Positions 7,373 through 60,600 are shown, counted from the stretch's first letter. The stretch: 64,000 nucleotides of DNA from Candidatus Parvarchaeota archaeon (GCA_023380615.1 JAMCRO010000019.1:1706-65705); one strand, 5' to 3'. A program made the numbers and translations. The notes: generated by a model from the sequence alone, not told the origin.

Positions 7373-7933
7373 ATGGGCTTAGATTCCATAATTGAAGATG
7401 AAAACAAAGAGATTCCTATAAAGAAAAATCTCAAATATTATGTTGGCAAGGCTTCTTCCGGCTTAAAAAGATTCTATAAAGACAACCTATCAGTTAAATT
7501 CAAGCTTCTTTATGAAAGTGCGGCCATGTTTTCTGATAGGATACTTACTTATTTTGGCCTTGAATACCAGAGTGGGCAGGAAGCCAACCCGATTATGGCA
7601 AAGCTGTTCAATTACATAGGAATAATCCCTGCTGCTATAAGCTCCTACATAATAGCGAACGTTTCTCTGTATGTTTTTTCTTCCAAAATGCATAAAAAAG
7701 TTGGTTTACAAAATAGGCAAATGCTCGGAAGCATATATTTAGGCATGGGTGGAGCGGAATCTCTGGTCTCGCTGCACAATTATCTTTCAATTAACAACTA
7801 CAATGATATAATAGCAAACATGGGCTATCTGCAATCGTTTATACCTCTTTCAGTAATCTGCGTTTCCCCTTTTTTATATTACTGGAGCAAGGAATACCTG
7901 CATAAAAAGAAAGAAGCTAAAACAAATCTTTAG
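7373..7933 (+). CDS. hypothetical protein with C-terminal hydrophobic segments
   Basis: The ORF is intact and starts 16 nt after the MFS gene. No family was recognised. Confidence 0.4.
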   Translation: MGLDSIIEDENKEIPIKKNLKYYVGKASSGLKRFYKDNLSVKFKLLYESAAMFSDRILTYFGLEYQSGQEANPIMAKLFNYIGIIPAAISSYIIANVSLYVFSSKMHKKVGLQNRQMLGSIYLGMGGAESLVSLHNYLSINNYNDIIANMGYLQSFIPLSVICVSPFLYYWSKEYLHKKKEAKTNL

Positions 7934-8805
7934 AGATCGAACTGTAAATTAAATACATGCAGGTCCTTTGATTTTTCTATCGGCCTTAACTTTGGTACAT
8001 ATTTGCCGGAAACCCTTATTTCTGCCTTTTTGAATCCATCAACGGCCGCAATGTACCCGTTATTGTTTATAGCACTCTCAGTAGAGGAATTACCGCATGA
8101 AGACAATATCTGGAGGTCTAAATTGTCTATGCCGTATTTTTTCAGTATGCCTGCATCGGCGCATATCTCAACCGAGGTGTTTATGCCGTTGAAGTTTATT
8201 ACAGGGTTTTTGCCATAGGATAATGAATAGTTTCTTTTTTCGTATTCTTTATATTTTGTTTCAGAGGGGTATAACTTTAATGCCCCTTCCAAATTAAAAT
8301 TTGAGCTAAGGCCATCGTTGAACTTATAAACGCTCTTTATCACCTCTCCGTTCCTTAATATGGGCATTACGTTGTACAGCGCCCTTTTTTCATCGTAAAA
8401 CATCGCGGTTCCTGGAAAAATGAGCATGTCCGAGCCTCTGCTTGCCAGTTTAAGCCCTTTTAGCAGTTTTTCATACTCTCTCTTTGAGTAAGGTATACTG
8501 GGAACATTTTCAAATACCGACCCATTATCTATTTGTTCTTCAAGGATTTTTCTTGCATCCCTTGGTGCATATTCACTGTAATCAGGCGCATTAAACAGCA
8601 CTTTAATTGCATCCTTTGCCTTGCTATTTCTGATAAATTTTCTAGGATATACTCCCGAAATGGATGTAAGACTCCATTCCGGCCCTACCAATATGTCTAT
8701 TTCTCTGTCTTTAGCATTATAGATGTTGCTAATTACTTCATAAGGATTTCCATTGTAATTAGTTTCAATGTTATTCATTGCCCCAAGAAGCATTTCTATT
8801 TTCAT
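7930..8805 (-). CDS. divergent carbon-nitrogen hydrolase (nitrilase superfamily)-like protein, paralog of 28391..29188
   Basis: It shares DI(L/I)VGPEWSL, EICAD(A/S)G(I/V)L and LDLQIL(S/V)S with the other copy. This is consistent with a Glu (PE) ... Lys ... Cys (ICxD) triad arrangement. The call is inference only. Confidence 0.4.
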   Translation of the reverse strand: MKIEMLLGAMNNIETNYNGNPYEVISNIYNAKDREIDILVGPEWSLTSISGVYPRKFIRNSKAKDAIKVLFNAPDYSEYAPRDARKILEEQIDNGSVFENVPSIPYSKREYEKLLKGLKLASRGSDMLIFPGTAMFYDEKRALYNVMPILRNGEVIKSVYKFNDGLSSNFNLEGALKLYPSETKYKEYEKRNYSLSYGKNPVINFNGINTSVEICADAGILKKYGIDNLDLQILSSCGNSSTESAINNNGYIAAVDGFKKAEIRVSGKYVPKLRPIEKSKDLHVFNLQFDL

Positions 8806-13202: not shown

Positions 13203-13599
13203 AAACAAAATTCACTCAATCTTTATGTCATTGTCTTCTAGGAGCTGCTTAAGAAGAAAGGTGTAGGTTAGTACTCCATTCTTGAAGCTTGCCTTACTTC
13301 CTTCCTTTTGCACAGGCGCAGGCAAAGCAATCTCTGTAGTAACCTGCTGAGTTTCTTTCCACTCTTTGCGTATTTGCCCTTATTACAAGCAAGTCTTACT
13401 CTATCTTCGGTTTTATGTCTTCCTTGCCCACACCTGGCAGGTCTGCAATTACTTTAACCCTATTGTTTTCATCTAATATGTCAACCCCCTTGTAATTGAA
13501 ATTAAACCCAAAGCCTGAAATAAACCTGTCAAGCTGCTGGAAATGGTTTAAATCAATTGGTTCTGTAGGTTGCAAGTCTTTTATCCTCATATGCACCAC
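13203..13599 (-). pseudogene. Hsp20/alpha-crystallin small heat-shock protein gene disrupted by an in-frame TAA and a downstream deletion/frameshift
   Basis: The listed ORF 13396..13599 ends ...VIADLPGVGKEDIKPKIE-TAA. It continues in frame as DLLVIRANTQRVERNSAGYYR (the typical LxI.aer....gyyrrE motif). A different frame then gives EIALPAPVQKEGSKASFKNGVLTYTF, which matches the LP..vd.dkikAsykNGVLtitlPK C-terminus. About 10 residues (ERSFGSFSRSF) are missing in between. Confidence 0.55.
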
Positions 13600-20527: not shown

Positions 20528-20610
20528 ATTACTATTAATAATACTCTCACAAATAAGTAAAGAAAATTAACTATTTAACGTTATAATATTCAAACTTCCA
20601 TAATTAATAT

Positions 20611-20618
20611 TTTTATAA
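20611..20618 (+). promoter_or_regulatory. putative archaeal TATA box (TTTTATAA) for the helicase-nuclease gene, leaderless configuration
   Basis: TTTTATAA is centred about 25 nt upstream of the ATG at 20639. No SD is present, which suggests a leaderless transcript. Confidence 0.35.
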
Positions 20619-20638
20619 TAAGCTATACAATTATTAGA

Positions 20639-23359
20639 ATGGACCTAAGTAAAAACATACTGATAAAAGCCAATCCAGGCACAGGAAAAACTACTTCGTT
20701 GGCCGACAGAGTCATAGATCTTATAAAAAATGGTGTGAGTGAAAATGATATACTTTGTTTAACCTTTACCAATAAAGCGGTAGATGAAATGTTTGAAAAA
20801 ATCAGCCAAAAACTAAAGGAAAACAATTTAGAAGTTTCAAGGATAAACAGTATAACAATTTCTACCTTCCACAGTTTCTGCAATTCATATTTTTCAGAGC
20901 AGGGCAAGGAATTCAAACTTGTTAAGAACAATTTTATAAGGTTTTCAATATTCAAGAGTTTTGAAAACAACAATGCCTTCAATTATGACAGGGATTACGT
21001 GATACAGGAATTAGTTCCGAAAGTAGAGAATGCAATAAGGTACATAAAAAGCTTCGGAATAACTCCCGATGAAATAAACGTAAAAATGACCAAAGAAGAA
21101 CTGATAAACAAGTCATTTTTAGAGAACATGAGCAGTGTAACCGTAGAAGAAATCCTGGCTTTCCTTGGCTATTTCGTAACGGCTTTCAAGGATTATGAAA
21201 TGGAAAAAGGAGAAACGAACATTGATTACAATGATCTTTTGAAGAGGTTTTTACTAGAGTATGATCCATTGAAAAAGCATTACAGATATGTTCTTGTTGA
21301 CGAATTACAGGATCTAAACGATGTAGAGGCAGAAATAGCTAGGCTTTTGGGGGATTACCTGTTCCTTGTTGGAGACAGAAAACAGGCTATCTTTGGTTTT
21401 CAAGGGGGCAGCCTAAAAAATTTCATTGAATTCCAGAAACTAAGCAATTTAGAGCAGCTGACAAAAGGCCTTAACTACAGAAGTTACAGCGAAATCCTTG
21501 GCTATTCAAAGCAGTATTTTCTCAGTAAAACGAAGGATAAAAGCTATGAGGATGAGTTAAGTGACTTTAAAAGCAATAAAGGCTCCGGCGGCAGCGTAAA
21601 ACAGCTGATAGGAAACAACACGGATGACATAGCCGTAAAACTTGCCATGGATCTTGTCTCTCAAGGTAAGAATACAGCAATAATAACAAGAACTAATGAA
21701 CAAATAATAAGCATTTCCCGTATTTTGGACTCTAAAAACGTGAAATACGCAACGACCGCAAGCGCTTCTGTCTCAACAAGGGCAAAGAATTCCATAATTG
21801 ATTATTTGAAGGGGATATTCAATGCCGATGAAAAAGACATTCTAAAGGCCCTGTTTACTCCATTTTCTGGCGTTTCTCTAAAGACTGCATTTGAAATCGA
21901 AGAAAAGTACAGGAAAAAGGAAATAGGCATGAATGAGGTAAAGAGACTTGCAAAGCCTTTTTTTGACAGGAAGGCCGCTGCAGAGCTGAATATCTTCAAT
22001 GTAAACAAGCTTTTCAATGAAACTATATTTCCGATATCCGTTGCCTTAGACAATGACTATTACATAAGCGCAGCGGCAATATTTGAAAACATAAACCAGT
22101 ACATGGACGGCAATGAACTACCGAGCCTTTCAGACATGCTTGTGTACCTCTACACTGCAGAAGACAGTTACGAATCAAATGATAAACAGGAAAAGCTGGT
22201 ACTTACAACCGTTCATAAGGCAAAAGGGCTAGAATTCGACAATGTCATATACATTCCAAAAAAACAGAACAATAAAACAAGCTTCATTGATTTGGTAACT
22301 AATTCTATAATCAAACAGACAAAGGAGATAGATGTTAGGGAGGAATTGGCGGAAGAAAGCATAAGGGTGGATTTTGTTGCGTTTACAAGGGCAAAGGAGA
22401 ATCTCTTTGTTGTAACCCCACCTGCACTTTCTGAGGATTACTATATTGAAGGTTTCATTGAAAAAAGCATTGCAGAAATGGAAGACGAACCTGCTCCTTT
22501 CAAGAAAAAATACGCTGAAGCGTATTCTCTTTTTGTTAACAAGGAATATGATGCAGCAAAGGCTTTACTTGAAGAAAATGATAAATGGCTAGTAAATAAG
22601 ATAAACGGCTATTTCAGCCAGCTTAAAAGCATATCATTTTCACTGCTGGATGCAATGTCAGATCCATTAAACTTTATAAAAACAAAGGTTTTGAAAATAA
22701 GCGAAGTGACAGAAAGCACAAAATTTGGTTCGAAAGCACATAAAATAGCGGAGGACTACTTCAAACACACATTAAAAGAAGAGGAATTGGATGAAACCCA
22801 GAAAAAAATCCTGCAGAACATAATAAGCATTATGGAAGAGATAAAAAGGAAATACAATGCAGTAGAAGTAGATGCTGAAAAAACGGTTGAAATGCCACTT
22901 GAAGCCGTATTTTCTGACATAAAAATCGATTTAAGGGTCTCTGCAAAGCTTGATGCCGTGTTCCTTAACAAGGAAAAGAACAAATTCCTGATAATAGACT
23001 TTAAAACGGATAGATCTGATGACCAGGGATCAAAGCACAGAAGACAGCTTGCTCTTTACCGCAGGCTTTTTGCAATAGAAAAGAAGATTAATGAAAAAGA
23101 CATAGATACTGCAATAGCATACATAAACTTAACAGGAAAGATAAACACCGGAAAATTTGAATATGAATTGGACACACAGAAAATAAAGGATATGCAGATA
23201 GATACTGTCAAGAAGCACATTATGCAGCTTTTGGAATACAAAAGTAATCCAGAGAAATTGATCGAGAAGGCAACTGAAAAGTATTATTATTCTGACAGTT
23301 TAAACGATGAAATATTCAAGAAGTTAAAGGAAGAGTACGAACATTCTAAAGCAGTATGA
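20639..23359 (+). CDS. UvrD/Rep-type SF1 DNA helicase fused to a C-terminal PD-(D/E)xK RecB/Cas4-like nuclease domain
   Basis: Walker A ANPGTGKTTSLADRV, motif Ia TFTNKAVDEM, motif II VLVDELQDLN, motif III GDRKQAIFGFQGG, and a motif VI-like TTVHKAKGLEFDNV are present. The C-terminus carries AKLDAV...LIIDFKTD (D...D/ExK) and the QLALYRRLF (QxxxY) signature of RecB-family nucleases. Confidence 0.7.
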   Translation: MDLSKNILIKANPGTGKTTSLADRVIDLIKNGVSENDILCLTFTNKAVDEMFEKISQKLKENNLEVSRINSITISTFHSFCNSYFSEQGKEFKLVKNNFIRFSIFKSFENNNAFNYDRDYVIQELVPKVENAIRYIKSFGITPDEINVKMTKEELINKSFLENMSSVTVEEILAFLGYFVTAFKDYEMEKGETNIDYNDLLKRFLLEYDPLKKHYRYVLVDELQDLNDVEAEIARLLGDYLFLVGDRKQAIFGFQGGSLKNFIEFQKLSNLEQLTKGLNYRSYSEILGYSKQYFLSKTKDKSYEDELSDFKSNKGSGGSVKQLIGNNTDDIAVKLAMDLVSQGKNTAIITRTNEQIISISRILDSKNVKYATTASASVSTRAKNSIIDYLKGIFNADEKDILKALFTPFSGVSLKTAFEIEEKYRKKEIGMNEVKRLAKPFFDRKAAAELNIFNVNKLFNETIFPISVALDNDYYISAAAIFENINQYMDGNELPSLSDMLVYLYTAEDSYESNDKQEKLVLTTVHKAKGLEFDNVIYIPKKQNNKTSFIDLVTNSIIKQTKEIDVREELAEESIRVDFVAFTRAKENLFVVTPPALSEDYYIEGFIEKSIAEMEDEPAPFKKKYAEAYSLFVNKEYDAAKALLEENDKWLVNKINGYFSQLKSISFSLLDAMSDPLNFIKTKVLKISEVTESTKFGSKAHKIAEDYFKHTLKEEELDETQKKILQNIISIMEEIKRKYNAVEVDAEKTVEMPLEAVFSDIKIDLRVSAKLDAVFLNKEKNKFLIIDFKTDRSDDQGSKHRRQLALYRRLFAIEKKINEKDIDTAIAYINLTGKINTGKFEYELDTQKIKDMQIDTVKKHIMQLLEYKSNPEKLIEKATEKYYYSDSLNDEIFKKLKEEYEHSKAV

Positions 23360-28390: not shown

Positions 28391-29188
28391 ATGTCAAAAT
28401 CGTTGAAAGTGGGTATAATAGACATAAACACAAACAAGCCAAAGTATTCCAGTCTGGAAAAAACGCTAGATGTGCTTGAAAAGGCAAGAAAATTCGATTT
28501 AGACATAATAGTCGGGCCGGAATGGAGCCTCATGGATAACCGATTTAGTAATGAACTTCCTTATTCCTCTAAGGAACTAGAGAAAATATTTTGTAGACTG
28601 AAAAACGCAACAAATGAAACTAAAGAACTTACATTGGCAGGCACTGCCGTAATCTCCACGAATAACAGGAAAATGTACAATTTTCTGCCCGTAATTTATG
28701 ATGGAAAGGTAATATTTTCGACGATAAAGATGACTGATGGTGGAACGTCCTTCTTTAACAATGGGAATTATGAAATTATTGGCAGAGATTATTCTATGAC
28801 TAATGACTTTGAATGGAAAAAGCTTAAGATAGGAATAGAGATATGTGCAGACTCTGGAGTATTATATAGAAAGGGGAAAAGAGATCTTGATCTGCAGATA
28901 CTAGTTTCCAGCGGAATCAGGATAACAAACCTTGCCGTGAAAAAAGGAGGTTATCTAATATGCTCCGACGGCATTCCAAAGGGAAAGAAAACCTATGTTA
29001 TAAAAACAAACGAAAATTATGATCCTGATTCCAGTGTAGACCTTGCAGATTTCAGGGGTTTATTCAAAAGAAAGGAAATTAATTACCAAGCAATGGAAAG
29101 TAATAACGTAGAAATGCCGTTTGAATTTGTTAAACCGGATTCAAGGCATAAAAACCTGAGCATATACCAATTAATTATTGATGATTAA
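28391..29188 (+). CDS. divergent carbon-nitrogen hydrolase (nitrilase superfamily)-like protein, paralog of 7930..8805
   Basis: DIIVGPEWSL (Glu), STIKMTDGG (Lys) and IGIEICADSGVL (Cys) have E-to-K and K-to-C spacing of about 69 and 40, as in nitrilase-superfamily triads. Confidence 0.45.
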   Translation: MSKSLKVGIIDINTNKPKYSSLEKTLDVLEKARKFDLDIIVGPEWSLMDNRFSNELPYSSKELEKIFCRLKNATNETKELTLAGTAVISTNNRKMYNFLPVIYDGKVIFSTIKMTDGGTSFFNNGNYEIIGRDYSMTNDFEWKKLKIGIEICADSGVLYRKGKRDLDLQILVSSGIRITNLAVKKGGYLICSDGIPKGKKTYVIKTNENYDPDSSVDLADFRGLFKRKEINYQAMESNNVEMPFEFVKPDSRHKNLSIYQLIIDD

Positions 29189-29928
29189 ACGATTATATCC
29201 CTTAGATCCTTTATTTTCCCAAAATTCAGATTCTCCCCCTCTGATATGCATATTGCGTTTAACTCATTAACGTCGCACATTTCCCTTAAAAACGGCGAGA
29301 GAAGTTCTTCTTTTTTCTCCTCGTTTATATTACTGCCGGGTGCAAATATGCTAGAAGCAGGCAAAACCAGCAGCTTTTTTCCATTGTTTGTATCGCCGTA
29401 AAGGAAGGCCTTCATTTTTTCTCCAGATCCTACGTATCTATAGATTATTACGCTAGGGTGTTCATGGCCTATAATGTAGGTTTCTGCTTCGCATTTAGGC
29501 AACTCATCCCCGTGCGCAATGTAAAATTCCTTTTCGAGTAGATAATCCCGTATTATCTCAACGTCATAGCTGTTTTTTATCCTGTCAAGGTAATTGTCAT
29601 GGTTTCCCTTTATCAGAAGCAGCTTTATAGACAGGTTTTTACAGAACTCTATAAGTTCTCCTATCTCTTTTCTTTCATAGTACTTCAAGTCCGAAAAGTC
29701 GTTCTTTAAATCACCAGTCACTATAAGCCTGTCTGCTCCCGTAGCCATTGCGGCATTTCTTACTATGTTTTCTATAAACTGCAGGTTTCTGCTAGGTATC
29801 AAAGTGCCTGATGCTGACATCTGCCCCTCATAACCCAGATGGGTATCAGATATAATAAGTGAATTAAGCGGCTTGATATAAGCTATCGGCACCCCTTCCA
29901 AAAGTTCTATCGATTCATTTATTTGCAT
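29185..29928 (-). CDS. calcineurin-like metallophosphoesterase (MPE-type DNA repair phosphoesterase partnered with Lhr)
   Basis: ISDTHLG (DxH), VTGDLKND (GDxxD), IKGNHDN (GNHD) and YIIGHEHP (GHxH) are present. The start overlaps the Lhr stop by 14 nt. Confidence 0.7.
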   Translation of the reverse strand: MQINESIELLEGVPIAYIKPLNSLIISDTHLGYEGQMSASGTLIPSRNLQFIENIVRNAAMATGADRLIVTGDLKNDFSDLKYYERKEIGELIEFCKNLSIKLLLIKGNHDNYLDRIKNSYDVEIIRDYLLEKEFYIAHGDELPKCEAETYIIGHEHPSVIIYRYVGSGEKMKAFLYGDTNNGKKLLVLPASSIFAPGSNINEEKKEELLSPFLREMCDVNELNAICISEGENLNFGKIKDLRDIIV

Positions 29929-32551
29929 TTTGATTCTCCCTTATTTTTTCCAATACCAGTTTATGCAGCCTTCTAACGTATTCCTTCTTGTTTTTTATCG
30001 AAACGACATCGCTTTCCCCCATCGTTACAAGGCTGTGTGAAAATGGAGAAGGCACGGAAGTGTCTATTATTGAATACCTTATATTTTTTGTTTTTATCGC
30101 TTTTAATATCTTAGATGCATTGCTCATATCCATTACATCCTCTTCTATCTCCCTGTAGGCTTCCTTTAATATGGGAAAGTTCTCATCCATCTCGCTTATT
30201 ATCCTCAAGAGTGCCTGTGCATTTATCTGCTGCCTTTCTACCCTTATCCTATGCCCCTTGTAATTCCTAAGTATCATCAATCCCCTAGCAGCTGCATGCC
30301 TAAATCTCCTCCTTAGTATCTCCGTTCTTTTTATGTTTTCCGTTATTATCTTCTGTATGTCTGCTTTAGCAGCCGATTCTATGATGCTTTTGATAATAAC
30401 GTCATTCATTTTTTCATTTGAAATCAACGAAAACCCGTTGTCGTTTATCACCAAACCGACCTCTTCTCCAAGTCTGTCGCTTAGGATGAATGCAAATACC
30501 CTTGACAGTGCATCGTTTACCCTCCTGCCAAACAGAGAGTGGAATATCGTGTACTCTTTGTCGTTGTATCTGGTCCTTTCTATAAGAATAAGCTTATCCG
30601 AAGGCACTTTTCCCGTAAAATACACCTGTTCTTTTATATATTCATATATCGAAGCTATTGAATTTTTGTCAGCAGGCATTGAGGCAAGGTATTTACCTGC
30701 CTGTTCAGGCATGTTTTTCTGGTTTTTATAAACAAACTTCTCTCTTGGAAGCCTGCTTATAATCGATGAAAACTCCCTCCTGAATTTGCCTATATCCAAT
30801 GCTAGCTCATAGCTTAGAGGGAGCTGCTCTGAAAACCAAGGGGGTATGTTTGGTTTTTCCCCGATTGCCGGCAAAACAAAGCAGTCCGCGGCACTGGATC
30901 TTTGGAATTTATAGACCTTGCCGCCCAATACAAAAACGTCCCCTTTTTTCAGTTTTTCCAAGAACTCTTCTTCGATGTTTCCTATTTTTTTCTTTGTACC
31001 CCAGATATAAACGTTTATTGCAACTTCATCGGGTATAGTCCCTATGTTTGTATAATATATAAGTCTCGTAAGCCTTCCCCTCTTCCCGAATTTGTTTGAG
31101 CTGTTGTCAAACCAGATTTTTCCATAAACGGATCTTTCACGCAACGGAACGTACTCTCCCGCAAGGTATTTTATAAGGCCCAGAAAATCTTTTTTATCCA
31201 GGTTTCTAAAAGGGTAAGCCTTCTTTATCAATGAGTATGCCTCATTAACGCCCCATATCCTGTTCAGGGCCATGCCGACTATGTGCTGTGCCAATACATC
31301 CAATGGATTTTCAGGCATAGTAAAAGAATCCAATTTCCTTTTTAAGCCATCGTAAAGCATAACAGTGCATTCAACCAAATCATCTCTGTTATTTATTATC
31401 AAATCACCGTTTGCAGTGTCCTTGAAGCCATGCCCGCTCCTTCCTATTCTTTGCAGCGCTCTTGTTATGCTTTTTGGTGAGTTTATCTGTATGACATTGT
31501 CTATGCTGCCTATGTCAATCCCTAATTCCAGACTGGTTGAGGAAACAACACATTTCAGCTTTCCATTCTTTAATTTCTCTTCAACGGAAAATCTCTCTTC
31601 CCTGGAAAGAGAGCCATGGTGTGCGGACACTTCTTCATCGGTATAACCGAATCTTCTTTTAAGGTTAAAAACCAGCCTTTCCGTACCGCTCCGTGTGTTT
31701 GTAAATATCAGTGTTGTCCTGTTCTTTTTTACTATGTTGTTGATTATATTATACATTGATTCGTCTATTTCTGATTCTTTTGAATATATAAGATCCTTGA
31801 CTGGAGAAATGACTTTGGCGTTTATTTTCTTGCTCCACGATGCATCTACTACTACGCAGCTCCTTTTTGTGCCTACAAGAAAACTTGCCGCTCTGTCCAG
31901 AGGGAATATTGTTGCACTCAACCCTATCCGTATGAAATCATGTTTTATTGAATCTGCCAGCCTTTCCAATGAAATTGAAAGATGCGAACCCCTCTTGCTG
32001 TTCGCAAGTTCATGCAGCTCATCCACTATTACATACTCCAAATTGACAAATTTCTGTATGAATTTGGGGGAATTCAACATTATTGCAAGAGATTCCGGTG
32101 TGGTGACAAATATATTTGGAGGGTGGACAAACTGCTTCCTGCGTTCGTTTTGTGGAGTATCCCCTGTCCTAACGCCGATTGTTATCTTTCTTTTATCGGT
32201 TAATTCCGGACTTTTATATATGTCTTCAATCGGTAGAATAATGTTTTTGTAGATATCATTGTTTAATGCTCTCAATGGAGAGATATAAAGACACTTTATC
32301 TCATCATTTAGTTTGCCCTCAACTGAAAGATCTACCAGTTCATTTATTATGGGTATAAATGCCGACAGGGTTTTGCCGCTGCCTGTAGGCGCAGTTATCA
32401 GCACATTTTTTCTATCACTTATTACCTTAAAAGAAAACTTCTGTGGAGGAGTCAACTCTTTAAACCTAGATACAAACCATTTTCTCATCACGGGATTTAA
32501 GGTCTTAATACTCTTATCATCAGGGTATTGCTCGTTCAGTATTGTTATCAT
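29915..32551 (-). CDS. lhr: Lhr-family (Lhr-core) ATP-dependent SF2 DNA helicase
   Basis: Motif I ITAPTGSGKTLSAF, motif II VIVDELHELANSKRG, III LSAT, IV IFTNTRSGTE, V/VI HHGSLSREER...SSTSLELGIDIG...QRIGRSGH are present. A long C-terminal Lhr-core extension follows. 878 aa. Confidence 0.8.
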   Translation of the reverse strand: MITILNEQYPDDKSIKTLNPVMRKWFVSRFKELTPPQKFSFKVISDRKNVLITAPTGSGKTLSAFIPIINELVDLSVEGKLNDEIKCLYISPLRALNNDIYKNIILPIEDIYKSPELTDKRKITIGVRTGDTPQNERRKQFVHPPNIFVTTPESLAIMLNSPKFIQKFVNLEYVIVDELHELANSKRGSHLSISLERLADSIKHDFIRIGLSATIFPLDRAASFLVGTKRSCVVVDASWSKKINAKVISPVKDLIYSKESEIDESMYNIINNIVKKNRTTLIFTNTRSGTERLVFNLKRRFGYTDEEVSAHHGSLSREERFSVEEKLKNGKLKCVVSSTSLELGIDIGSIDNVIQINSPKSITRALQRIGRSGHGFKDTANGDLIINNRDDLVECTVMLYDGLKRKLDSFTMPENPLDVLAQHIVGMALNRIWGVNEAYSLIKKAYPFRNLDKKDFLGLIKYLAGEYVPLRERSVYGKIWFDNSSNKFGKRGRLTRLIYYTNIGTIPDEVAINVYIWGTKKKIGNIEEEFLEKLKKGDVFVLGGKVYKFQRSSAADCFVLPAIGEKPNIPPWFSEQLPLSYELALDIGKFRREFSSIISRLPREKFVYKNQKNMPEQAGKYLASMPADKNSIASIYEYIKEQVYFTGKVPSDKLILIERTRYNDKEYTIFHSLFGRRVNDALSRVFAFILSDRLGEEVGLVINDNGFSLISNEKMNDVIIKSIIESAAKADIQKIITENIKRTEILRRRFRHAAARGLMILRNYKGHRIRVERQQINAQALLRIISEMDENFPILKEAYREIEEDVMDMSNASKILKAIKTKNIRYSIIDTSVPSPFSHSLVTMGESDVVSIKNKKEYVRRLHKLVLEKIRENQNANK

Positions 32552-51696: not shown

Positions 51697-54600
51697 TTAG
51701 GGTAGTACACTGCCCAAGCTAACGGAAGGCATTACGCCGTCTGGAGGATATACACGAATTCTAAACCAATATATTGGTCCTATTTGCGGTGAAGTAGTAC
51801 TTTGTTCTCCTATTATACCAATCTTTAGGGAGGATGAAGGATTAGTAGTTATTTTCCCCTTTGAACCGTAATTATAGGAGAAATAAGATGCAGAAGAATT
51901 CGGCCAATAAATCTGCCATAAATTAGTTCCTGAGGTCGTTGGTGAACTTAAAGCTGTTCTTGTTCCTCCATCTGTTTGTATTGTCTGCGGGTAAGCTGTA
52001 GATATAGAAAGACTTCCTGTTCCACTGTAATCTAACATAGTCCAAGCAACTTGCATATCATAGGAAGTAGTGCCTGTGATAAAGCCTATAGCTGACTGAT
52101 CTGCAGAGGTTGATGAAGGGATATCCCCGTAAAATTCAAGTAGAGTATCTGAACTTGGGCCGTAAGTATCGTTTGTTTCAATAGCCCCTGTTCCGCTTGA
52201 GGGGTTTATGGTTACGCCATTATTTATGCTCACTGTTCCAGAAGATGTCCATCCAGATGGAACTGTAGTTCCAGCGAAATTCCAGTATTCAGTGAATACA
52301 TCTACCCCATCGTCATATTCCCCATACGTTGAAGAAAGCTGTGGAGCTTCGCCAGTATTGTTGGTATTAAACAGATTTGTATCATTTGATGCAAAGCCTA
52401 TTGCAACGTCTTGTATGGTCGTATCTGCAGGTATGCCGTTCGGCAATTTGATCCAGAATATGGCGTACTTTGAAGTGTAGCTCTCAAGCCATGAATCTAG
52501 TACCTTGCCGGTTGCAATGTTAAAGAACTCAACGTTTTGTAAGGAATATTTGCCAGTCTGGTTTATGTATTGGCTATCTGATGAAGTTATAGTCAAATTA
52601 ATCATCTGCTGGAATGGCACTGAAGTAGGAATAGACTGAGCATTGGTTATATTTATCGGCATATAATAAATTAAGGAAGAAGACAACTGTGGGTATATAT
52701 CTCTTGTTATTGTAATAGAATTTGCAGTATAATTCTGATTTCCACTAGTATTTAGAACTATAGTATAGTTTCCTACACGACTACTTAAATTTAATGTTGT
52801 ACTTTTGTTTATAGTTTTATTAAAAATGCCATTTATATACAATGTTGCATTTAACTGGTTGTTAATAGTAGATATCGATACGTTTATTATGAGACTTGTT
52901 CCATTATATAGATAATTTTTGTTAGGATTTGACACCAGATTAAGTACGGGAGTTGCTTTGTTTATTGTATTATAATAGGACACATTTTTTATGCTCGTGG
53001 AATTGGATCCTCCGATTACTTTTATTTTCCCTGCAGCAAAAAGATTAGAATATGTTGAAATATTGCCAGATAAATTGGTTAAAGATACTACTGAATTATT
53101 TAACTCCTTCCAAAGTTTGACATAGTGATTATCAGACTCAACTGTAAAATTACTATCTTTACCATAAATCATTGTAATATTATTGTTCGAGATGCCGTTT
53201 ATAAACAGAGTTATTGGTTTCGTAACTAATGTATTTAATTTAACAGAAGGCATTACGCCGTCTGGAGGGTAAGCACGAACATTAACCCAATAAACAGATA
53301 TGGGATTAGTATACTCATTAGTTAAAGATAAACCAATCGATGATGAATATGCTGGAATAGTAGTTGTTATGGTTTGTCCTGAACTTCCTAATGTTGAATA
53401 GGTATTTGGATTATAAAATAAAACTTGCGTGTCCGTAGCGGCTATACTCCATATAACGGAAGTATTTGCTAAAGAACTCCAAGAACCTATCTCATTTTGT
53501 GTTCCTGATGAGCCAGCATCTGTATTTGCATACCAATTTCCATTATCATATATCTGTTCGCCAAAAGATTGTGTAGATGAACCTCCAAAGTAAGTTGGAT
53601 TTGAATTTGTAAATCCCCATCTAAATGTTGTATTAGTTGAGGGGCTATTTTCATAAACATCTGCCACTACAGATCCATCGAAACTTCCAGAACTTAAAGA
53701 GGTTTTAATCCAAGTTTGATGAGAAAGCCCTCCTGTTCCGCCACCTGTTAAAGTTAATTTATTACTCACTATAATATCTGAGGTAGAACCACTTGTTCCT
53801 GAACTGCCAAAGCTGCTCCACTTTGTAGTATTTAAACTAGTTCCTTTAAAGTTATCGTAAAAATTGAATACATTGGCTCCATCGTCGTATTCTGCATATG
53901 TAGGGGATAGCTGAGGTGCTTCACCAGTATTATTAATGTTAAACAGATTTGTATCATTGGATGCAAAGCCTATTGCAACGTCTTGTATGGTCGTATCTGC
54001 AGGTATTCCGTTCGGCAATTTAATCCAGAATATGGCGTACTTTGAAGTGTAGCTCTCAAGCCATGAATCTAGTACCTTGCCGGTTGTAGTGTTAAAAAAC
54101 TCAATATTTTGGAAGGAATGTTTGCCAGTCTGGTTTATGTATTTGTTATATGATGAGTTTAACGTTAAATTAATCATCTGCTGGAAAGGCTGTTTAGTAG
54201 CAGAAGTTTGAGAGTTGGTAATGTTCAACACTGCGTATTTGTAAATACTTTGAGGAGTAACTAAGCTATGTTTAGAGAAGTTTATCGTAAGTTTTCCAAA
54301 TGAAACCGTATAACCGGAAGAAGAATTTGGTACATAAATTTCACTTGAAAAGGTTATATTGTTGATACTGTAACTGTAATTGCCAAAATTACTTGCAAGT
54401 GTTATCAAGTTTGAGATTGAAGAGTTCACTTTATTGTCGTATTTCACAGTCCAATTGGTACCCGAAGGAAGCCCTTCTTCAACAAATTGCTTAATGCATG
54501 CCCAGCTAGATATGTTGTTAGAAGTTCCTGGGTCTGCAATGCCATTGGACGAACAACTTATGTTTGACCCCGCAGAATAAGTATAAATAATCGAATTAGA

Positions 54601-57600
54601 GGAATTAAAGTTTATTTTTATCGCACTCCCAGTTTTATTGCTATTGTTTACCCCGTTGTAATCAACCCACCAATTATTGCCTTTAGGCAGTGTACTCTGA
54701 TTGAAAGTAGTGGTGCAGTCCCAATTAGAAAAGACATACGTAGAACCTGCCTCAACGGATGCGGGCTTTACCCTGCACGACATATTAGTTGACGCCGTTG
54801 CAGTATAATTACCATACGGAATATTGTGAATTATTATCGTATTATTCGAATTATTTAAAGAGGTCTTTGGCGCAATAAATGACACTGTTGGCATAACACC
54901 GTTAGGATATGAAAGTGCTATAGTTGGAGCTGTCAAAATGAATCCTCCTGGACCACAGCTCCCCCCGCCGTTTCCTCTAGAAGTGCCCAAGAGATACTGC
55001 CCAGGGGGTAAATTGACTGAACCGTAGGATGATAGACAGTAGGGTGTGTTAAAGAAATCGTTGAAATATGATTTGCCGGTTGAAACGCTGATTATACTCA
55101 ATCCAGAGTAACCCCCGCTTCCACCTGCCATGTAAATATTAACATCTCCCCCTCCCCATGAACATATCATTTCATTATTTCCTCCAGGATAGTTCTCCAT
55201 GTTAAAGAAATCGCCACATGATGTGTAATTTTCACTTAGCTTTACGGGAAGCTGGGAACCTGTTGAGGGTTGAGGGTACGGGCCTAACTTTGGAGATACA
55301 CTTGAATTAAGGCTATTAAGTACATCTGTAGAATTCGATGCAAACCCTATATAAACATATGTAAACGAATTGGCAGGTATCTCCCCCAAATCTAACCAGT
55401 ATACCGCATCGTTACTGTAGCCGTAGTTTTCAAGCCAACTGGAAATTATTGTTCCGTTTGGATAGAAAAATTCAACATTTTGGAAATTGGATGCTGCGAG
55501 ACCCCCGTAAACTGTATTATTTACAGTTACCATTTGCTGGAAAGAAGACGCTGTGGAAACATTCTGAAAATTGCTTATTTTTAAAAGCTTATATTTTGTT
55601 ATGTTACTTAAATCTGAAGTTTGGGATGCAGAAGTACTTCCATTTTTGCCATCGAAAGCAACAGACCAGTTACCTATAAGACCCTTCTCTGAGAAAACAG
55701 TTGTACAGAGATCAGACGATAATGAAAAGTGAATATTAATAATAGCCCCTGCATTTTCTTTGGAATCAGTAACGTTTGAAGTATATGTAGATATACAGTT
55801 TAAGGTTGATGATTTATTTGAAGAAGTATAAACTGATAAATTATAACGGCCTGGAACGGTACTAAAAGTCATATAATCAGCTGTTGCGGATTTATTTATT
55901 CCATCAAATGAAGCGTACCAGCGGTACCCTTGCGGTAAACCGGTCTCTGTTAAATTTGTTGTTACCAGCGTAAGATTAATAAAAACAGAAGGCATTACTC
56001 CATTTGGAGGATAGGCACGTACACGAATCCATTGATATTGCTGATCAAATGACGCCCCATTACCTGTGTTATAATCCCCCAAATTAATATAAAGAGGTGC
56101 AGAAGGATTATCGGAAGTAGTTGAAGATGTGGATCCGTAATTAAGAAAAGTAGTTACTCCATTAACTGAAGATAATGAAACGGAATAGATGTTCCAGTTC
56201 AAATTATAGGATGTTGATTGGAGATATGTATATGCCCCATTAAGAACACTTTCGGATTGGATAATATCCCCTAAATTGTCCTTTCCTGCCGACCACCCTG
56301 CAATTGTATCTCCAGTTCCACCATTATTATCCCAAACAGGCTCTGAATTGCTGACAGTAGATATCCCTATAAGTCCTCTTTCATTTCCAGTATTTCCCTT
56401 ATTTTGATTAATGTAACCTTCCAATATCTCATTATTACTAAATACCTGATGAGTAGTTGCAACATATGTCGAACCAGACGTGCTTCCATCTCCACTTATG
56501 GTAAGACCGTTATCTACGGAAACTTTTGACCCTGAAACCGCACCAGAATTCCATATATTTGTATTTAAACTTGTTCCGTTGAAGTTAGCATAGAAGTTAA
56601 ATACATTTGCCCCATCATCATATTCCGCATATGTTGAAGATAACTGTGGTGCCTCTCCTGTTGTGTTGATATTGAAATTATTGGAATAAGCTAGGAGGGT
56701 CTGATTGAATATCATGTCAATGGCTATGCTGCTTTCCGCCGGAATGCTTTTAATTTTTAGCCAGTATACAGTATCATTTGAGGTATTCGAATTACCAGAT
56801 TCCAACCATGAAGGAATAACTGTTCCATTCTGATATGTAAACATTATGTTTGTTAATTTGGAGTTTTCATCTTTTGAATATTTTGAAGAGTTAAAAACAA
56901 GCATCTGCTGGAAGGGTTGTGAAGTTGCTGTTGACTGGTTATTATAAAACGAAATAGGGATTATAACGGGCTTTTTATAAGCAGAAGTATCATTTGAAAA
57001 TACAAATGTTGCATTAGATCCGGATGCAATGAATCCACCAGATATATTAGACAAAAAGCCAGAGTTGTAGTCTACTGATGGATAAACCTTGAAAGTATAA
57101 TTATCACTATAAGAAGTTGTAAATTCCATAATATTTGACTTAGAAGAACCATTTTTACCGTTTAAATTTACTATCCAGGTATAACCTGATGGAAGCCCTT
57201 CTTCTTTAAAGTAGGTATGACAAACGCTACTGAAATTGATCATTTCTGTAGAGCCTGAAGTGACACTGCCAGAAGAAGGGACTGGAATAAAATTACACTG
57301 CGATTGGTTTTCAGCTTGTACCGAAAAACCAAAAGAAGACAAAGCAGAGGTATTGAAAGTAATATTGCTGGAGATGGAAGAATTCTTTATACTGTTATAT
57401 GTAACTGACCAATTATCTTTTAAAGGCAAGCCGGTTTCATTAAATGTAGTTATACAAAAGGAAACTGAAAAACTTACATCTGTATCTGAACCTGCAGCAA
57501 TACCGCCGTTTGCAGGAGTAGCAATGTATCTACAGCCTGCAATATTCACTGCAGGCACTGTAAAGTTATACAGCCCTTTGGTGGTATTTAAAGAAATATA

Positions 57601-60600
57601 TTTTTTGGTAGATGAATTTGACATATTTGCAAAGGTTACGCCCCATTTTGTACTGCTAGGTAAACCGGATTCGGTGAAATTAGAGATACAATAATCTTCC
57701 GTAAACTTTACATAGGTATAATGGCCTGCTTGTGCATAACCATTTGATTCATTGGAAACAAAATAACAATTATGGTAATCAATAGATGGCACAGAAAATG
57801 AATAATTACCACTTATAATATTGAAACTTATGTCCGATAAAGAAGATGAATTAGTCAGATTATCGTACTTTACAGCCCAGCTAATTCCGGACGGTAAGCC
57901 GGTTTCTATAAATTCGGAATAACAGTAATTTGAAAAGCTAATAATTGTGCTTGATCCAGCAGTTAAATAGCCGCTGCTTGGATCTGGCGTAAGATAACAG
58001 TTTGTTGATACTTGTATCCTTGGCACTGAAAAAGAGAAGTTTCCATAAATAGAGTCCACATCCAATGAACTATTAGAAGAATAATTTGTTATACCGTCGA
58101 ATTTAACACTCCAAGTTATTCCTTTTGACAAACCTGTTTCATTAAATAAAGTTATACAAGAAGAAGAAAAAGAAAGAAGTAAAGAAGAGCCTGCAGCAAT
58201 GTGACCGTCGCTTGGATTTGGAGTAAAGACACAGCCACCATCTTTTATGCTGTATGCAGTAAAGTTAAAAGTACCCGGAATCGTTGATAGCTCTAATGAA
58301 GTTTTATTTGAACTGTAATTGATATTATTATAAGTTAACGTCCATTTTGTATTAGAAGGAAGGTTACCCTCTGTAAATGTAGTGTAGCATCTTGTCTGAT
58401 TGAATATTAGATATAAAGTTGACCCAGCAGCAAGTTCTGAAGAGCCATTCTTGGCAACATACAGACAGTTATTTAAAGTTAAGTTTTCTACAGTGTACTT
58501 AAAAGTGCCTGGAGGAGTCACAAACTGGATGCTTGTACTTGTAGACGCACTGCTCTGATTATCATATGTTAAATTCCATTCACTTCCCGGTGGCAGCCCG
58601 TTCTCATAGAATACGGTTGTGCATCCTCCACTGTAACTTACGCTAACCCTTGAACCCGCTATCGTATTTCCAGAAGAAGGATTTGGTCGGTATGAACAGC
58701 TGGAATTGCCTATAAATGGCAGACTATACGCATAAGTACCGTTTATTGATGGCACTTTTATTACAGAGGCATTTGATGAAACCGTAGTGCCGTTATATGT
58801 AACAAACCAGTATGTGTTTTTTGGCAAGCCGGTTTCATTGAAAGAAGTAAGGCATGATGCAGTAAAATGAACTGTGAAATAACCTCCTGCTGCGGTACTA
58901 CTAGACAAAGGTTCCGGAGAAAATACACAATTAGATAGATTTATTGGATAAAATTTTGCCGTAAAAATTCCGGGAGGGGTGGTTATTGTAACGTTATTAT
59001 TAGAGGGACTCTCTGTTATCCCGTCAAAGGTAAGCTTCCACTGCGTATTAGCCGGCAAACCCCTCCCTATAAAGGTAGTATTGCAGGTATTTTCAATAAA
59101 TGATATATTTATATTTCCACCTGCGATGAGATAGCCTGAAGCGGGGGAGGGCAAAAAGGAACAATATGAAGAATCAACCGTATTCAAAGAAAAAGAGAAA
59201 TTACCCGGAGTTGTTATAAAGCTTATATTGGATAGGCTGGAAGAATTAAGAATTCCGTCATATTTAACAGACCAAGTAGCACCTGAAGGCAATCCATCCT
59301 GAGAAAATGTGGATAAGCATTCCTTTGTATATGAAATACTGGCAGATTCTCCTGCCACTAAATAGGAAGATTCAGGTTTAGGATAATAAAAGCACCCAGG
59401 CCCTGCATTTATGATTTCGGAAGTATAAGAGTGATTTCCGGGTAAAGCGTATATTATTACTGATTTATTGAAAGAACTTCCAGACACTCCATCAAAATTC
59501 ACATCCCACTCTGTATCATTTGGCAAGCCGGTTTCATTAAAAATAGTCTTGCAAGTGTTTATATAAGTAGCATTGACATACGAGCCTACTTCTGTAGTTC
59601 CACTTGGTGAAGTTAAATTTATATGGCAACCGTCCTCTGAAATGCTTTTAGGCTTTATATGATAATTATAAGAGTTATTCGAGAAAGAGTCATTAAATAT
59701 TATTTTTGAAGTATTGGATGCTTTTGATAAAACATTGAAGGTAACATTCCATTCACTATCGCTTGGTAAGCCAGTTTCCTTAAAAGTAGTAAGACAGAAT
59801 ATTCCTGTGAATTTAATATTCAAAATAGATGATGTGTTGAGTGTACCCTGTGTTACGTTTGAAGTATAGAAACAGCCGCTACTTTCAGCAGTGAATACTT
59901 TAAAGTTATACGATCCTTCGTTTGTTAAGAATGAAATTTGATTGGAGTTGGAGGAAGCGTTTATATTATTAAAGGACACATACCAGTCTGTCCCTTTCGG
60001 AAGACCGGTTTCCTTAAAAGAGGTTATACAGTTATCTCCAAAGATTATAGAAAGGTTATTACCGGGAGCTATTGATCCGGAAGAGGGCTGTGGGTCATAT
60101 GCACAGAATGTATTTATTGGTACGCTCTCTACGGAATACGGATTGGCGGATGAATTTGAGGAACTAACTATTATTTTATTTGAGGTAGAAGAATATAATT
60201 TGTAGGAATATATTTCAGATGGATTTGGCAAATTATAATCAAAATAAGAGGGAAAAGAATCATTTACTTCCCACTTTGTACCGTTAGGTAAGCCAGTTTC
60301 TGTAAAAATAGTCTTGCATGCAGCACTAAAATGAACCGTAATATGAGAACCTGCAACTAATATCTCATTATAACTTGTAGAAAAAACACAGCCGTTTATA
60401 CTTACAGTAGGGATATGAACAGAGTAGTTTCCTGGATCCGTTGTGACTACGGTAAAATTCCTTGTTGAATAATTAGTTATATTGTCTATCGAAACGCTCC
60501 AATTTACATTTTTGGGCAGGCCTGTTTCAGTAATATTAGAAGTACATGAGCTTGGAGAGAAATAAACGCTGGCATTTCCACCTGAAACAAGATTACCGCT

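Follow-up and report, generated by a model that had tools for sequence, protein, structure and literature searches.

Which task falls to an archaeal protein that carries a DNA helicase and a nuclease on one chain: the processing of the cell's own DNA ends, a subunit's part in a larger resection machine, or the destruction of foreign DNA? This question is raised by a gene in a 64,000-nucleotide stretch of contig JAMCRO010000019.1 (1706-65705) from an ARMAN-type archaeon of Candidatus Parvarchaeota (GCA_023380615.1), to which we refer in its full length as the window. An initial annotation, made from the sequence of the window, had described the product as a single polypeptide in which a superfamily 1A (SF1A) UvrD-type motor is followed by a C-terminal RecB-family nuclease, and this description is borne out by Pfam assignments, by invariant motifs, by a fold match to AddA, RecB and AdnAB and by profile matches of the C-terminal module to AdnB and Cas4. 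With respect to function, the annotation had offered a choice between end resection and defence. Because the synteny of the gene is conserved, its divergence rate resembles that of its neighbours, no defence island surrounds it in the window and no viral or plasmid copies were found in the IMG/VR and PLSDB collections, the evidence leans toward a chromosomal housekeeping or repair role. We consider it probable, if by no means assured, that the protein acts as a stand-alone helicase-nuclease in repair and DNA-end processing.

An SF1A motor and a RecB-type nuclease on one chain

The gene (20639..23359, plus strand; Table 1) is an uninterrupted open reading frame (ORF) of 906 codons that is closed by a TGA stop, and its ATG is the first possible start after the upstream stop, which leaves no room for an extension in the 5' direction. 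With 1319 homologues at E<=1e-5 and a ratio of nonsynonymous to synonymous substitution rates (dN/dS) of 0.04, the gene is real far beyond what chance would produce; the G+C content of the window, about 36%, is even across the gene and its flanks. In the Pfam scan, residues 4-267 match UvrD-helicase (PF00580; 147.1 bits, cutoff 23; E 1e-42) and residues 497-592 match UvrD_C (PF13361; 65.5 bits, cutoff 25.6; E 7.5e-18); a match to AAA_19 (PF13245) spans the motor. The Walker A motif is preceded by only 12 residues, and the alignment to the UvrD-helicase profile begins at profile position 13. The C-terminal part is recognized as PDDEXK_1 (PF12705) at residues 676-866 (39.9 bits where 22 are required, E 6e-10), and a scan of the isolated C-terminal domain raises the PF12705 score to 43.5 bits against the same cutoff of 22, with matches in all eight homologous C-terminal domains (8/8). 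A profile search thus aligned the C-terminal motifs with PD-(D/E)xK nucleases, as the initial annotation had anticipated.

The catalytic motifs were read from an alignment of the window protein with 29 homologues (n = 30; 38-90% identity). Invariant in the motor are Walker A (GTGKT, 14-18), motif Ia (TFTNKA, 42-47), the residues D221, E222, Q224 and D225 of motif II (DELQD, 221-225), motif III (GDRKQAIFGFQGG, 245-257; pattern G245-D-x-K-Q-x-I-F-G-F-Q-G-G257), R281 of motif IV, motif V (HKAKGLEF, 526-533, from H526 to F533) and motif VI (FTRAK, 582-586, with R584). All SF1A motifs had been correctly noted at the outset, but not their extent: They had been allotted to the N-terminal 560 residues, whereas motif VI lies at 578-586 and the motor comprises about 595 residues. 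In the nuclease, the invariant positions are G697-x3-H701, D772, D787-F-K789 and Q803-L-A-L-Y807; the latter two contain the elements 'IIDFK' and 'QLALY' that had been singled out from the beginning, both of which we find in the sequence. The pre-nuclease segment (596-690) that connects motor and nuclease bears the family-specific conserved residues Y629, F632, W650 and F659.

Against the 90%-identical orthologue, dN/dS amounts to 0.041 for the whole gene, 0.037 for the motor and 0.043 for the nuclease at a dS of about 1.2, while the value against the 67%-identity relative is unusable owing to saturated synonymous sites. Because the ratio is equally low on both halves, the motor and the nuclease activities both appear to be maintained by selection. 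These data bear on the proposal that the protein is a helicase only, i.e., a UvrD/PcrA-like enzyme accessory to repair or replication whose C-terminal domain is a degenerate DNA-binding or interaction module, or, at the extreme, that the gene is decaying. Inactivated RecB-like nuclease folds do exist, for instance in RecC (PMC1185551), and the top-scoring NCBIfam model of the window protein is PcrA. However, H701, D772, D787, K789, Q803 and Y807 are invariant in all 30 sequences, purifying selection acts as strongly on the nuclease as on the motor, and all close relatives have kept the ORF intact, which renders this proposal most improbable.

The architecture is mirrored in the structural model. 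AlphaFold2, supplied with the 30-sequence alignment, yielded a model with a mean predicted local distance difference test (pLDDT) score of 86.7 and a predicted template modelling (TM) score (pTM) of 0.80, and pLDDT falls below 50 only at the loop 616-622. Searching the PDB with Foldseek, we obtained Bacillus subtilis AddA (4ceh_A) as the top full-length match (E 7e-25, 16% identity in the structural alignment), followed by UvrD, PcrA and Rep, which match the motor only (TM about 0.55-0.58 on the target), and then by RecB, AdnA/AdnB and AddB. A profile of the C-terminal module found its best match in the nuclease domain of AdnB (924-1060, E 6e-6) with GxxxH, D, DxK and QxxxY in register, whereby D787 aligns with the catalytic D1014 of AdnB, the residue that is replaced in the AdnB(D1014A) structures. 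The same profile also matches the Cas4 protein SSO0001 (E 6e-4).

The term 'RecB/Cas4-like' that had been used for the nuclease holds in its first half and fails, taken strictly, in its second. Each Cas4 family member possesses four conserved cysteines that bind an iron-sulfur (Fe-S) cluster (PMC5704561), and these four are absent here: The only cysteines of the window protein are C40 and C81. Because its nuclease half has none, the nuclease is to be assigned to the RecB/AddA/AdnB type rather than to a strictly Cas4-like one, and it is predicted to be cluster-free. The same applies to the archaeal homologues at large, among which we found no conserved cysteine in the C-terminal 300 residues; most of them, like the window protein, have no cysteine there at all. 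In the bacterial sister fusions (Aminicenantes, Bacillota, Omnitrophota and NC10; loci L025, L034, L085 and L060), by contrast, the signature C...CX2CX5C is present, composed of one cysteine in 'CPLKY' and of C-x2-C-x5-C at the C-terminus. In the pre-nuclease segment of the archaeal clade, 'DPxxF' ('DPLNF') replaces 'CPLKY', and a helical 'NPxxFI...' tail is found where the C-terminal cysteine triad sits in the bacterial proteins; this tail may serve as a structural substitute for the iron 'staple'. A relative from Saccharibacteria resembles the archaeal and not the Fe-S form.

Nearest known enzymes and the search for a partner

How does the window protein relate to the characterized enzymes with which it shares its modules? 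A sequence search of the motor against solved structures ranks Rep (2e-17), UvrD1 (7e-17) and PcrA (4e-16) before AddA (1e-9) and AdnB (1e-8). The UvrD/PcrA/Rep group, with which the motor has the four-subdomain SF1A fold in common, is thus closest by sequence, but its members lack a nuclease domain. AddA of the B. subtilis AddAB enzyme (PDB 4ceh, 3u44) combines an SF1A motor with a subsequent Fe-S-free RecB-type nuclease just as the window protein does; it differs in its length of about 1230 residues versus 906 and in being encoded in the same operon as AddB, whereas no linked partner accompanies the window gene. RecB of RecBCD has the identical domain order and nuclease motifs and matches structurally, but is longer (about 1180 residues), and RecC and RecD genes are missing near the window gene. 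In the mycobacterial AdnAB (PDB 6ppj, 6ppr, 7sjr), whose nuclease domain is the closest solved one by profile, each subunit of about 1050-1100 residues consists of a UvrD-like motor and a RecB-like nuclease; AdnAB is a heterodimer of paralogous subunits that are encoded together, while here we find a single gene without an adjacent paralogue in any locus. Finally, Cas4 (e.g., SSO0001, PDB 4ic1) and the AddB nuclease domain share the PD-(D/E)xK core with the window protein but contain the four Fe-S cysteines that it lacks.

None of the NCBIfam equivalogs claims the protein. PcrA, Rep, UvrD, AddA, RecB and HelIV all remain far under their cutoffs, so that we assigned it to none of them: addA_Gpos reaches 78.7 against a cutoff of 707.65 and addA_alphas 95.5 against 860.75, about a tenth of what is required in both cases, TIGR00609 (RecB) reaches 77 against 696.05, and recD matches weakly at the Walker A region only. 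The alignment to the second-ranking model, PRK13909 for the epsilonproteobacterial 'RecB-like helicase', extends across the nuclease domain (PRK13909.1-2: 107.7 against 650).

These relationships raise the possibility that the protein is the AddA- or AdnB-like subunit of a two-subunit AddAB/AdnAB-type resection machine and that the gene for the other subunit lies elsewhere in the genome. The Helicobacter addA and addB genes provide a precedent for a partner encoded at another place. The top rank of AddA among the full-length fold matches and the position and reach of the PRK13909 alignment fit such a machine, and a partner would also solve a problem of polarity, as a lone motor-nuclease of this kind has the wrong polarity for leaving a 3' tail. 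Against it stand the low scores of the AddA, RecB and PRK13909 equivalogs, the sequence of the motor, which finds nearer relatives in Rep, UvrD and PcrA (about 1e-17) than in either AddA or AdnB, and the genomic context. Apart from the helicase-nuclease itself, just three proteins of 800 residues or more are encoded in the window, namely an Lhr helicase and a pair of surface proteins with DUF2341, and Pfam scans of 20 larger ORFs and of both giant ORFs returned metabolic, transport, Lhr, DEAD-box and surface proteins and no partner. The absence of an AddB/RecC-like gene, as stated in the initial annotation, thus holds for the 64-kb window and likewise for 19 related archaeal loci that represent six or more phylum-level groups, in none of which an AddB-, RecC- or AdnA-like gene adjoins the helicase-nuclease gene. 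An all-against-all BLAST of the 539 flanking ORFs of the 19 archaeal loci revealed no family in more than 3-4 loci, and those that do occur in 3-4 loci each (a generic S-adenosylmethionine methyltransferase, MFS, isochorismatase) we judged to be due to chance. Eleven further annotated archaeal contexts have unrelated flanks, for example PEPCK, an M48 peptidase, SMC, ribosomal proteins, tRNA synthetases and radical-SAM proteins. Taken together, we regard a hidden partner as distinctly unlikely.

The bacterial fusions were also considered as AddA proteins with an accompanying AddB and rejected as such: The neighbours in Aminicenantes, Saccharibacteria and Omnitrophota are housekeeping genes. In one Bacillota metagenome-assembled genome (MAG; JAMDEM010000115.1, locus L034, 1682-8435), a 988-residue Fe-S-type UvrD-PDDEXK fusion is succeeded by a co-directional Metallophos gene (SbcD/Mre11-like, 438 residues) and by a third co-directional gene of the AAA_23/SMC_N type (SbcC/Rad50-like, 825 residues) with overlapping stops and starts; no AddB is encoded in the 1.7 kb available upstream. 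These neighbours may be taken as one piece of guilt-by-association with break processing, albeit in a distant relative. A shared arrangement was seen in two loci whose orthologues are about 45% identical (L005, 4323-9996; L102, 3128-6955): They have in common an upstream block of a Csa3_N/HTH_5 regulator and AAA ATPases with tetratricopeptide (TPR) or ankyrin repeats, which is followed by small ORFs of unknown function running straight into the helicase-nuclease gene and which we saw in no other lineage.

Chromosomal behaviour, family and proposed function

The Parvarchaeota relatives have kept the surroundings of the gene on both sides. Upstream these are DUF981, cytochrome b, HxlR, aldo-keto reductase and isochorismatase genes, downstream a 64-residue ORF and genes for an MFS transporter, COXG, a flavin adenine dinucleotide (FAD) oxidoreductase and AlaX, together with a Metallophos-Lhr pair and genes for a methyltransferase and a DEAD-box helicase. 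The identity of the helicase-nuclease follows that of its neighbours, with 89.7% versus 78-92% in the nearer relative and 67% versus 54-82% in the more distant one. In Parvarchaeota it thus behaves like a stable part of the chromosome that has kept its synteny, and not like a gene of an island. Nor is it universally linked to recombination genes, an arrangement that the initial annotation had named as the mark of a purely housekeeping role. A scan of IMG/VR yielded no full-length relative and eight weak matches to the helicase only, and a tblastn search of PLSDB gave no match spanning at least 80% of the query.

The nearest proteins stem from Candidatus Parvarchaeota and Parvarchaeum assemblies (93-67% identity, all 904-915 residues). 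Below 55% identity the same full-length architecture recurs in Micrarchaeota, Thermoplasmata (Oxyplasma meridianum, Thermoplasmataceae), Marsarchaeota and one Methanothrix MAG and, among the species-genome matches listed, in Altiarchaeota, Undinarchaeota and one uncultured archaeon whose genome is complete; cultured Acidiplasma species possess a full-length homologue of 38% identity. Complete genomes with the gene include CP133772 (Oxyplasma meridianum) and AP024486 (Micrarchaeota), and GCA_027369915 is one of the Parvarchaeota MAGs that contain it. Among 1.84 billion cluster representatives, the profile of the C-terminal module matches only 91 at E<=1e-30 and 142 when the limit is relaxed to E<=1e-10; full-length members have 850-960 residues. 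Because the profile matches are few, the size range is fixed and the module is always C-terminal, the archaeal family appears to be small (about 90 clusters at 50% identity) and uniform in architecture. A neighbour-joining tree, which carries no support values, sets the archaeal clade apart from the nearest bacterial full-length fusions, among which the matches listed include those of Aminicenantes. Within the clade the archaeal phyla are intermixed, a pattern that may reflect either inter-archaeal transfer or MAGs with binning errors. In one Acidiplasma cupricumulans assembly (cluster of P0266), the orthologue is broken into four fragments of 61-219 residues on one 101-kb contig, while it is intact with 888 residues in other Acidiplasma; the fragmented copy suggests a pseudogene or an assembly error, and also that the cell may be able to do without the gene.

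The architecture as such has been described before. Hudaiberdiev, Makarova and Koonin (2017) identified as the largest branch of pfam12705 a monophyletic group from bacteria as well as mesophilic archaea, with a 'Cas4-like' nuclease fused to a UvrD-like helicase; these fusions often adjoin Type III restriction-modification (R-M) or Dcm/Vsr genes and otherwise stand alone or in non-conserved contexts, and an ancillary role in defence or repair was proposed for them (PMC5704561). The archaeal 'Cas4-UvrD' leaves of their tree include Ferroplasma acidarmanus, which is sister to Aminicenantes, and leaves from Marine Group I and Methanosarcina (PMC5704561). The order of the two domains and the stand-alone or non-conserved contexts of the archaeal members recur in our family, which we found in Acidiplasma, the sister genus of Ferroplasma within the Ferroplasmaceae. 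Because the family occurs in Acidiplasma and Aminicenantes fusions are among its nearest bacterial relatives, both of which are indirect indications, the window gene very probably belongs to the published class. A difference lies in the Type III R-M and Dcm/Vsr contexts that were stressed in 2017, none of which occurs at the archaeal loci examined here. Our literature search returned this comparative paper and no later one that uses the term 'UvrD-Cas4' or characterizes an archaeal member; a paper on Parvarchaeota metabolism is silent on repair.

What would a stand-alone enzyme of this type do? By analogy with AddA, RecB and AdnB, from which we infer ATPase activity, 3'-5' polarity, strand cutting and cellular role alike, the SF1A motor would bind a 3' single-stranded tail or a DNA end, and ATP hydrolysis would drive its movement in the 3'-5' direction along with the unwinding of the duplex. 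On leaving the motor, the tracked strand would be cut by the tethered, metal-dependent C-terminal nuclease. Its most likely task would be to work on DNA ends, 3' flaps or stalled forks in the course of recombinational repair and possibly to degrade linear DNA. In detail, the likelier roles of such an activity would be the trimming of 3' flaps or blocked ends, the processing of forks, the degradation of linear DNA, or resection as a dimer or together with other factors. The simple generation of a substrate for RadA is less likely because a lone enzyme would degrade the 3'-ended strand.

Several points weigh against an autonomous repair function. A 3'-5' motor that cuts its own tracked strand destroys the very 3' tail that RadA needs, so that resection would require regulation, dimerisation or a partner, and our search for a partner in this genome was confined to the 64-kb window. 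The literature search brought up no biochemical or genetic data on any family member. Furthermore, the family is patchy, its taxa are intermixed in the unsupported neighbour-joining tree and one Acidiplasma copy is fragmented, all of which fits an accessory or defence function as well as repair. Lastly, R-M, AbiEii or Csa3-like genes lie 2-10 kb away in 4 of about 12 annotated archaeal contexts, although they are never adjacent and never the same.

The latter two points lend themselves to the competing explanation that the protein is an anti-virus or anti-plasmid nuclease-helicase which, alone or as an R-M accessory, loads on the ends or nicks of foreign DNA and shreds it. The published fusions are most often found near Type III R-M or Dcm/Vsr genes (PMC5704561), and the motor is matched by PADLOC models, namely by that of a DRT-associated helicase and by GajB of the Gabija system (residues 2-596), with E-values for GajB and other UvrD-like defence helicases down to 1e-38. 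The best 25 of the 33 PADLOC families matched do not include Nhi, to whose relatives the initial annotation had suggested a comparison. However, the PADLOC matches comprise the generic helicase core only: They stop at about residue 595, none reaches the nuclease, and GajB itself, of about 500-600 residues, has no nuclease and requires GajA, an OLD-family nuclease of which no like is encoded nearby. Moreover, no defence genes surround the gene in the window, where its two small neighbours remain without a PADLOC match, and Type III R-M or Dcm/Vsr genes adjoin it in none of the 19 archaeal members. The fixed chromosomal position in Parvarchaeota, the divergence at the rate of the neighbours, the very low dN/dS and the lack of full-length viral or plasmid copies in IMG/VR and PLSDB likewise argue against defence, and what does vary at this locus is the adjacent surface-protein gene and not the helicase-nuclease gene. 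A defence function is hence unlikely in our view.

A bolder proposal, which we hold to be rather unlikely, may be put forward tentatively: The cysteine-free archaeal clade might represent a self-sufficient, single-chain or homodimeric analogue of RecBCD/AddAB that resects or destroys linear ends in DPANN archaea and Thermoplasmatota and supplements or replaces the canonical HerA-NurA machinery. If so, this lineage would have lost the Fe-S 'staple' as an adaptation. The resection of DNA ends in archaea is credited to Mre11-Rad50 together with HerA-NurA. A one-gene UvrD-RecB enzyme, if active alone, would add a minimal, bacterial-style end-processing enzyme to archaeal genome maintenance, with the highest relevance for the small genomes of DPANN archaea and their reduced repair repertoires. 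The compactness of the family (906 residues, no cofactor cluster, no partner found) and its occurrence in the cultured acidophiles Acidiplasma and Oxyplasma make it a convenient target for biochemistry and possibly a reagent. For the annotation of such genes, 'ATP-dependent helicase' can be refined to 'UvrD-type helicase / RecB-type nuclease, Fe-S-free, stand-alone'. The class had been noted by comparative genomics, and the window gene is an ordinary, well-conserved member of it; what we add is its assignment to a lineage, its chromosomal synteny, the absence of a linked partner across the phyla surveyed, the small size of the archaeal clade and its lack of the Fe-S cysteines that the bacterial sisters possess.

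Neighbouring genes in the window

The features of the gene and of its immediate surroundings are compiled in Table 1.

Table 1. Coordinates of the helicase-nuclease gene, its modules and the adjoining features in the window.
Feature	Position	Strand	Basis or remark
Complete helicase-nuclease gene	20639..23359	+	906 aa; dN/dS 0.041 vs 90%-identical orthologue
SF1A UvrD/Rep/PcrA-like motor, residues 1-595; domains 1A/1B/2A/2B; motifs I, Ia, II, III, IV, V, VI	20639..22423	+	PF00580, PF13361, PF13245; invariant motifs; Foldseek; dN/dS 0.037
Linker and helical pre-nuclease segment, residues 596-690	22424..22708	+	Alignment and model
RecB-family PD-(D/E)xK nuclease core, residues 691-870	22709..23248	+	PF12705; invariant motifs; profile matches to AdnB/Cas4; dN/dS 0.043
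C-terminal helical tail, residues 871-906; 'NPxxFI' motif, then helix	23249..23356	+	Model secondary structure; archaeal C-termini aligned with bacterial ones
Divergent intergenic region between surface-protein gene and helicase-nuclease gene, AT-rich, 111 bp	20528..20638	.	Sequence read
Surface-protein gene, divergent, 2246 aa	13787..20527	-	ORF call; DUF2341
ORF of 64 aa with two hydrophobic stretches of about 22 residues	23356..23550	+	ORF call; orthologues
Convergent ORF, 162 aa	23547..24035	-	ORF call

The arrangement of neighbours given in the initial annotation, with a divergent giant surface-protein gene, a 64-residue ORF in stop/start overlap and a convergent ORF, was found as described except for the length of the last: In relatives it begins at the fourth codon of the window ORF and has 159 instead of 162 residues. 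In the intergenic region, a TATA-like TTTATAA (20612-20618) lies about 24 nt 5' of the ATG; it may be a putative promoter of a leaderless or short-leader archaeal transcript, though a chance match is to be expected in a region so rich in AT. The start of the 64-residue ORF overlaps the stop of the helicase-nuclease gene by 4 bp in the form of ATGA, as is always the case in Parvarchaeota, and because of this overlap the two are probably co-transcribed. Given 81% and 49% identity to its orthologues in L001 and L004 and a dN/dS of 0.19, the ORF is a real gene, conserved only within Parvarchaeota: It has no Pfam, NCBIfam or PADLOC match, and no counterpart is located 3' of the helicase-nuclease gene in other phyla. 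Rfam and tRNA scans of the window detected no RNA element.

The divergent surface-protein gene and a second one at 51697-63363 (minus strand, 3888 residues) encode giant secreted or surface proteins that are paralogues of one another, each with DUF2341 as its sole Pfam match. The copy next to the helicase-nuclease gene is hypervariable among strains: It encodes 2246 residues here, 1212 in L001 and L002 and 335 in L003, and is absent from L004, the 67%-identity relative. The surface protein encoded in the window looks like an internally duplicated, expanded version of the 1212-residue form, with 65.7% identity over 1100 residues and weaker repeats. Beyond it, an HSP20 small heat-shock gene (13212-13590, minus strand) is split into two frames (13590-13327 and 13334-13212) while being intact in relatives (137 residues in L001), which suggests either an error in the sequence near 13330 or a pseudogene with a frameshift there.

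On the other side, a 265-residue ORF without a Pfam match (28391-29188, plus strand) is interposed between AlaX and Metallophos, which are about 50 bp apart in L001-L003. It looks like a strain-specific insertion and is about 30% identical to a 291-residue hypothetical protein encoded at 7930-8805, a distant paralogue. The adjoining Lhr-type superfamily 2 helicase (878 residues; DEAD, Helicase_C, WH_Lhr, DEAD_assoc) and the 247-residue Metallophos phosphoesterase (29185-32551, minus strand) overlap by 14 bp. This pair, presumably similar to the Lhr-MPE operon of bacteria, is located at a distance of 6 kb from the helicase-nuclease gene, is unlinked to it in other phyla and is kept in all Parvarchaeota relatives.

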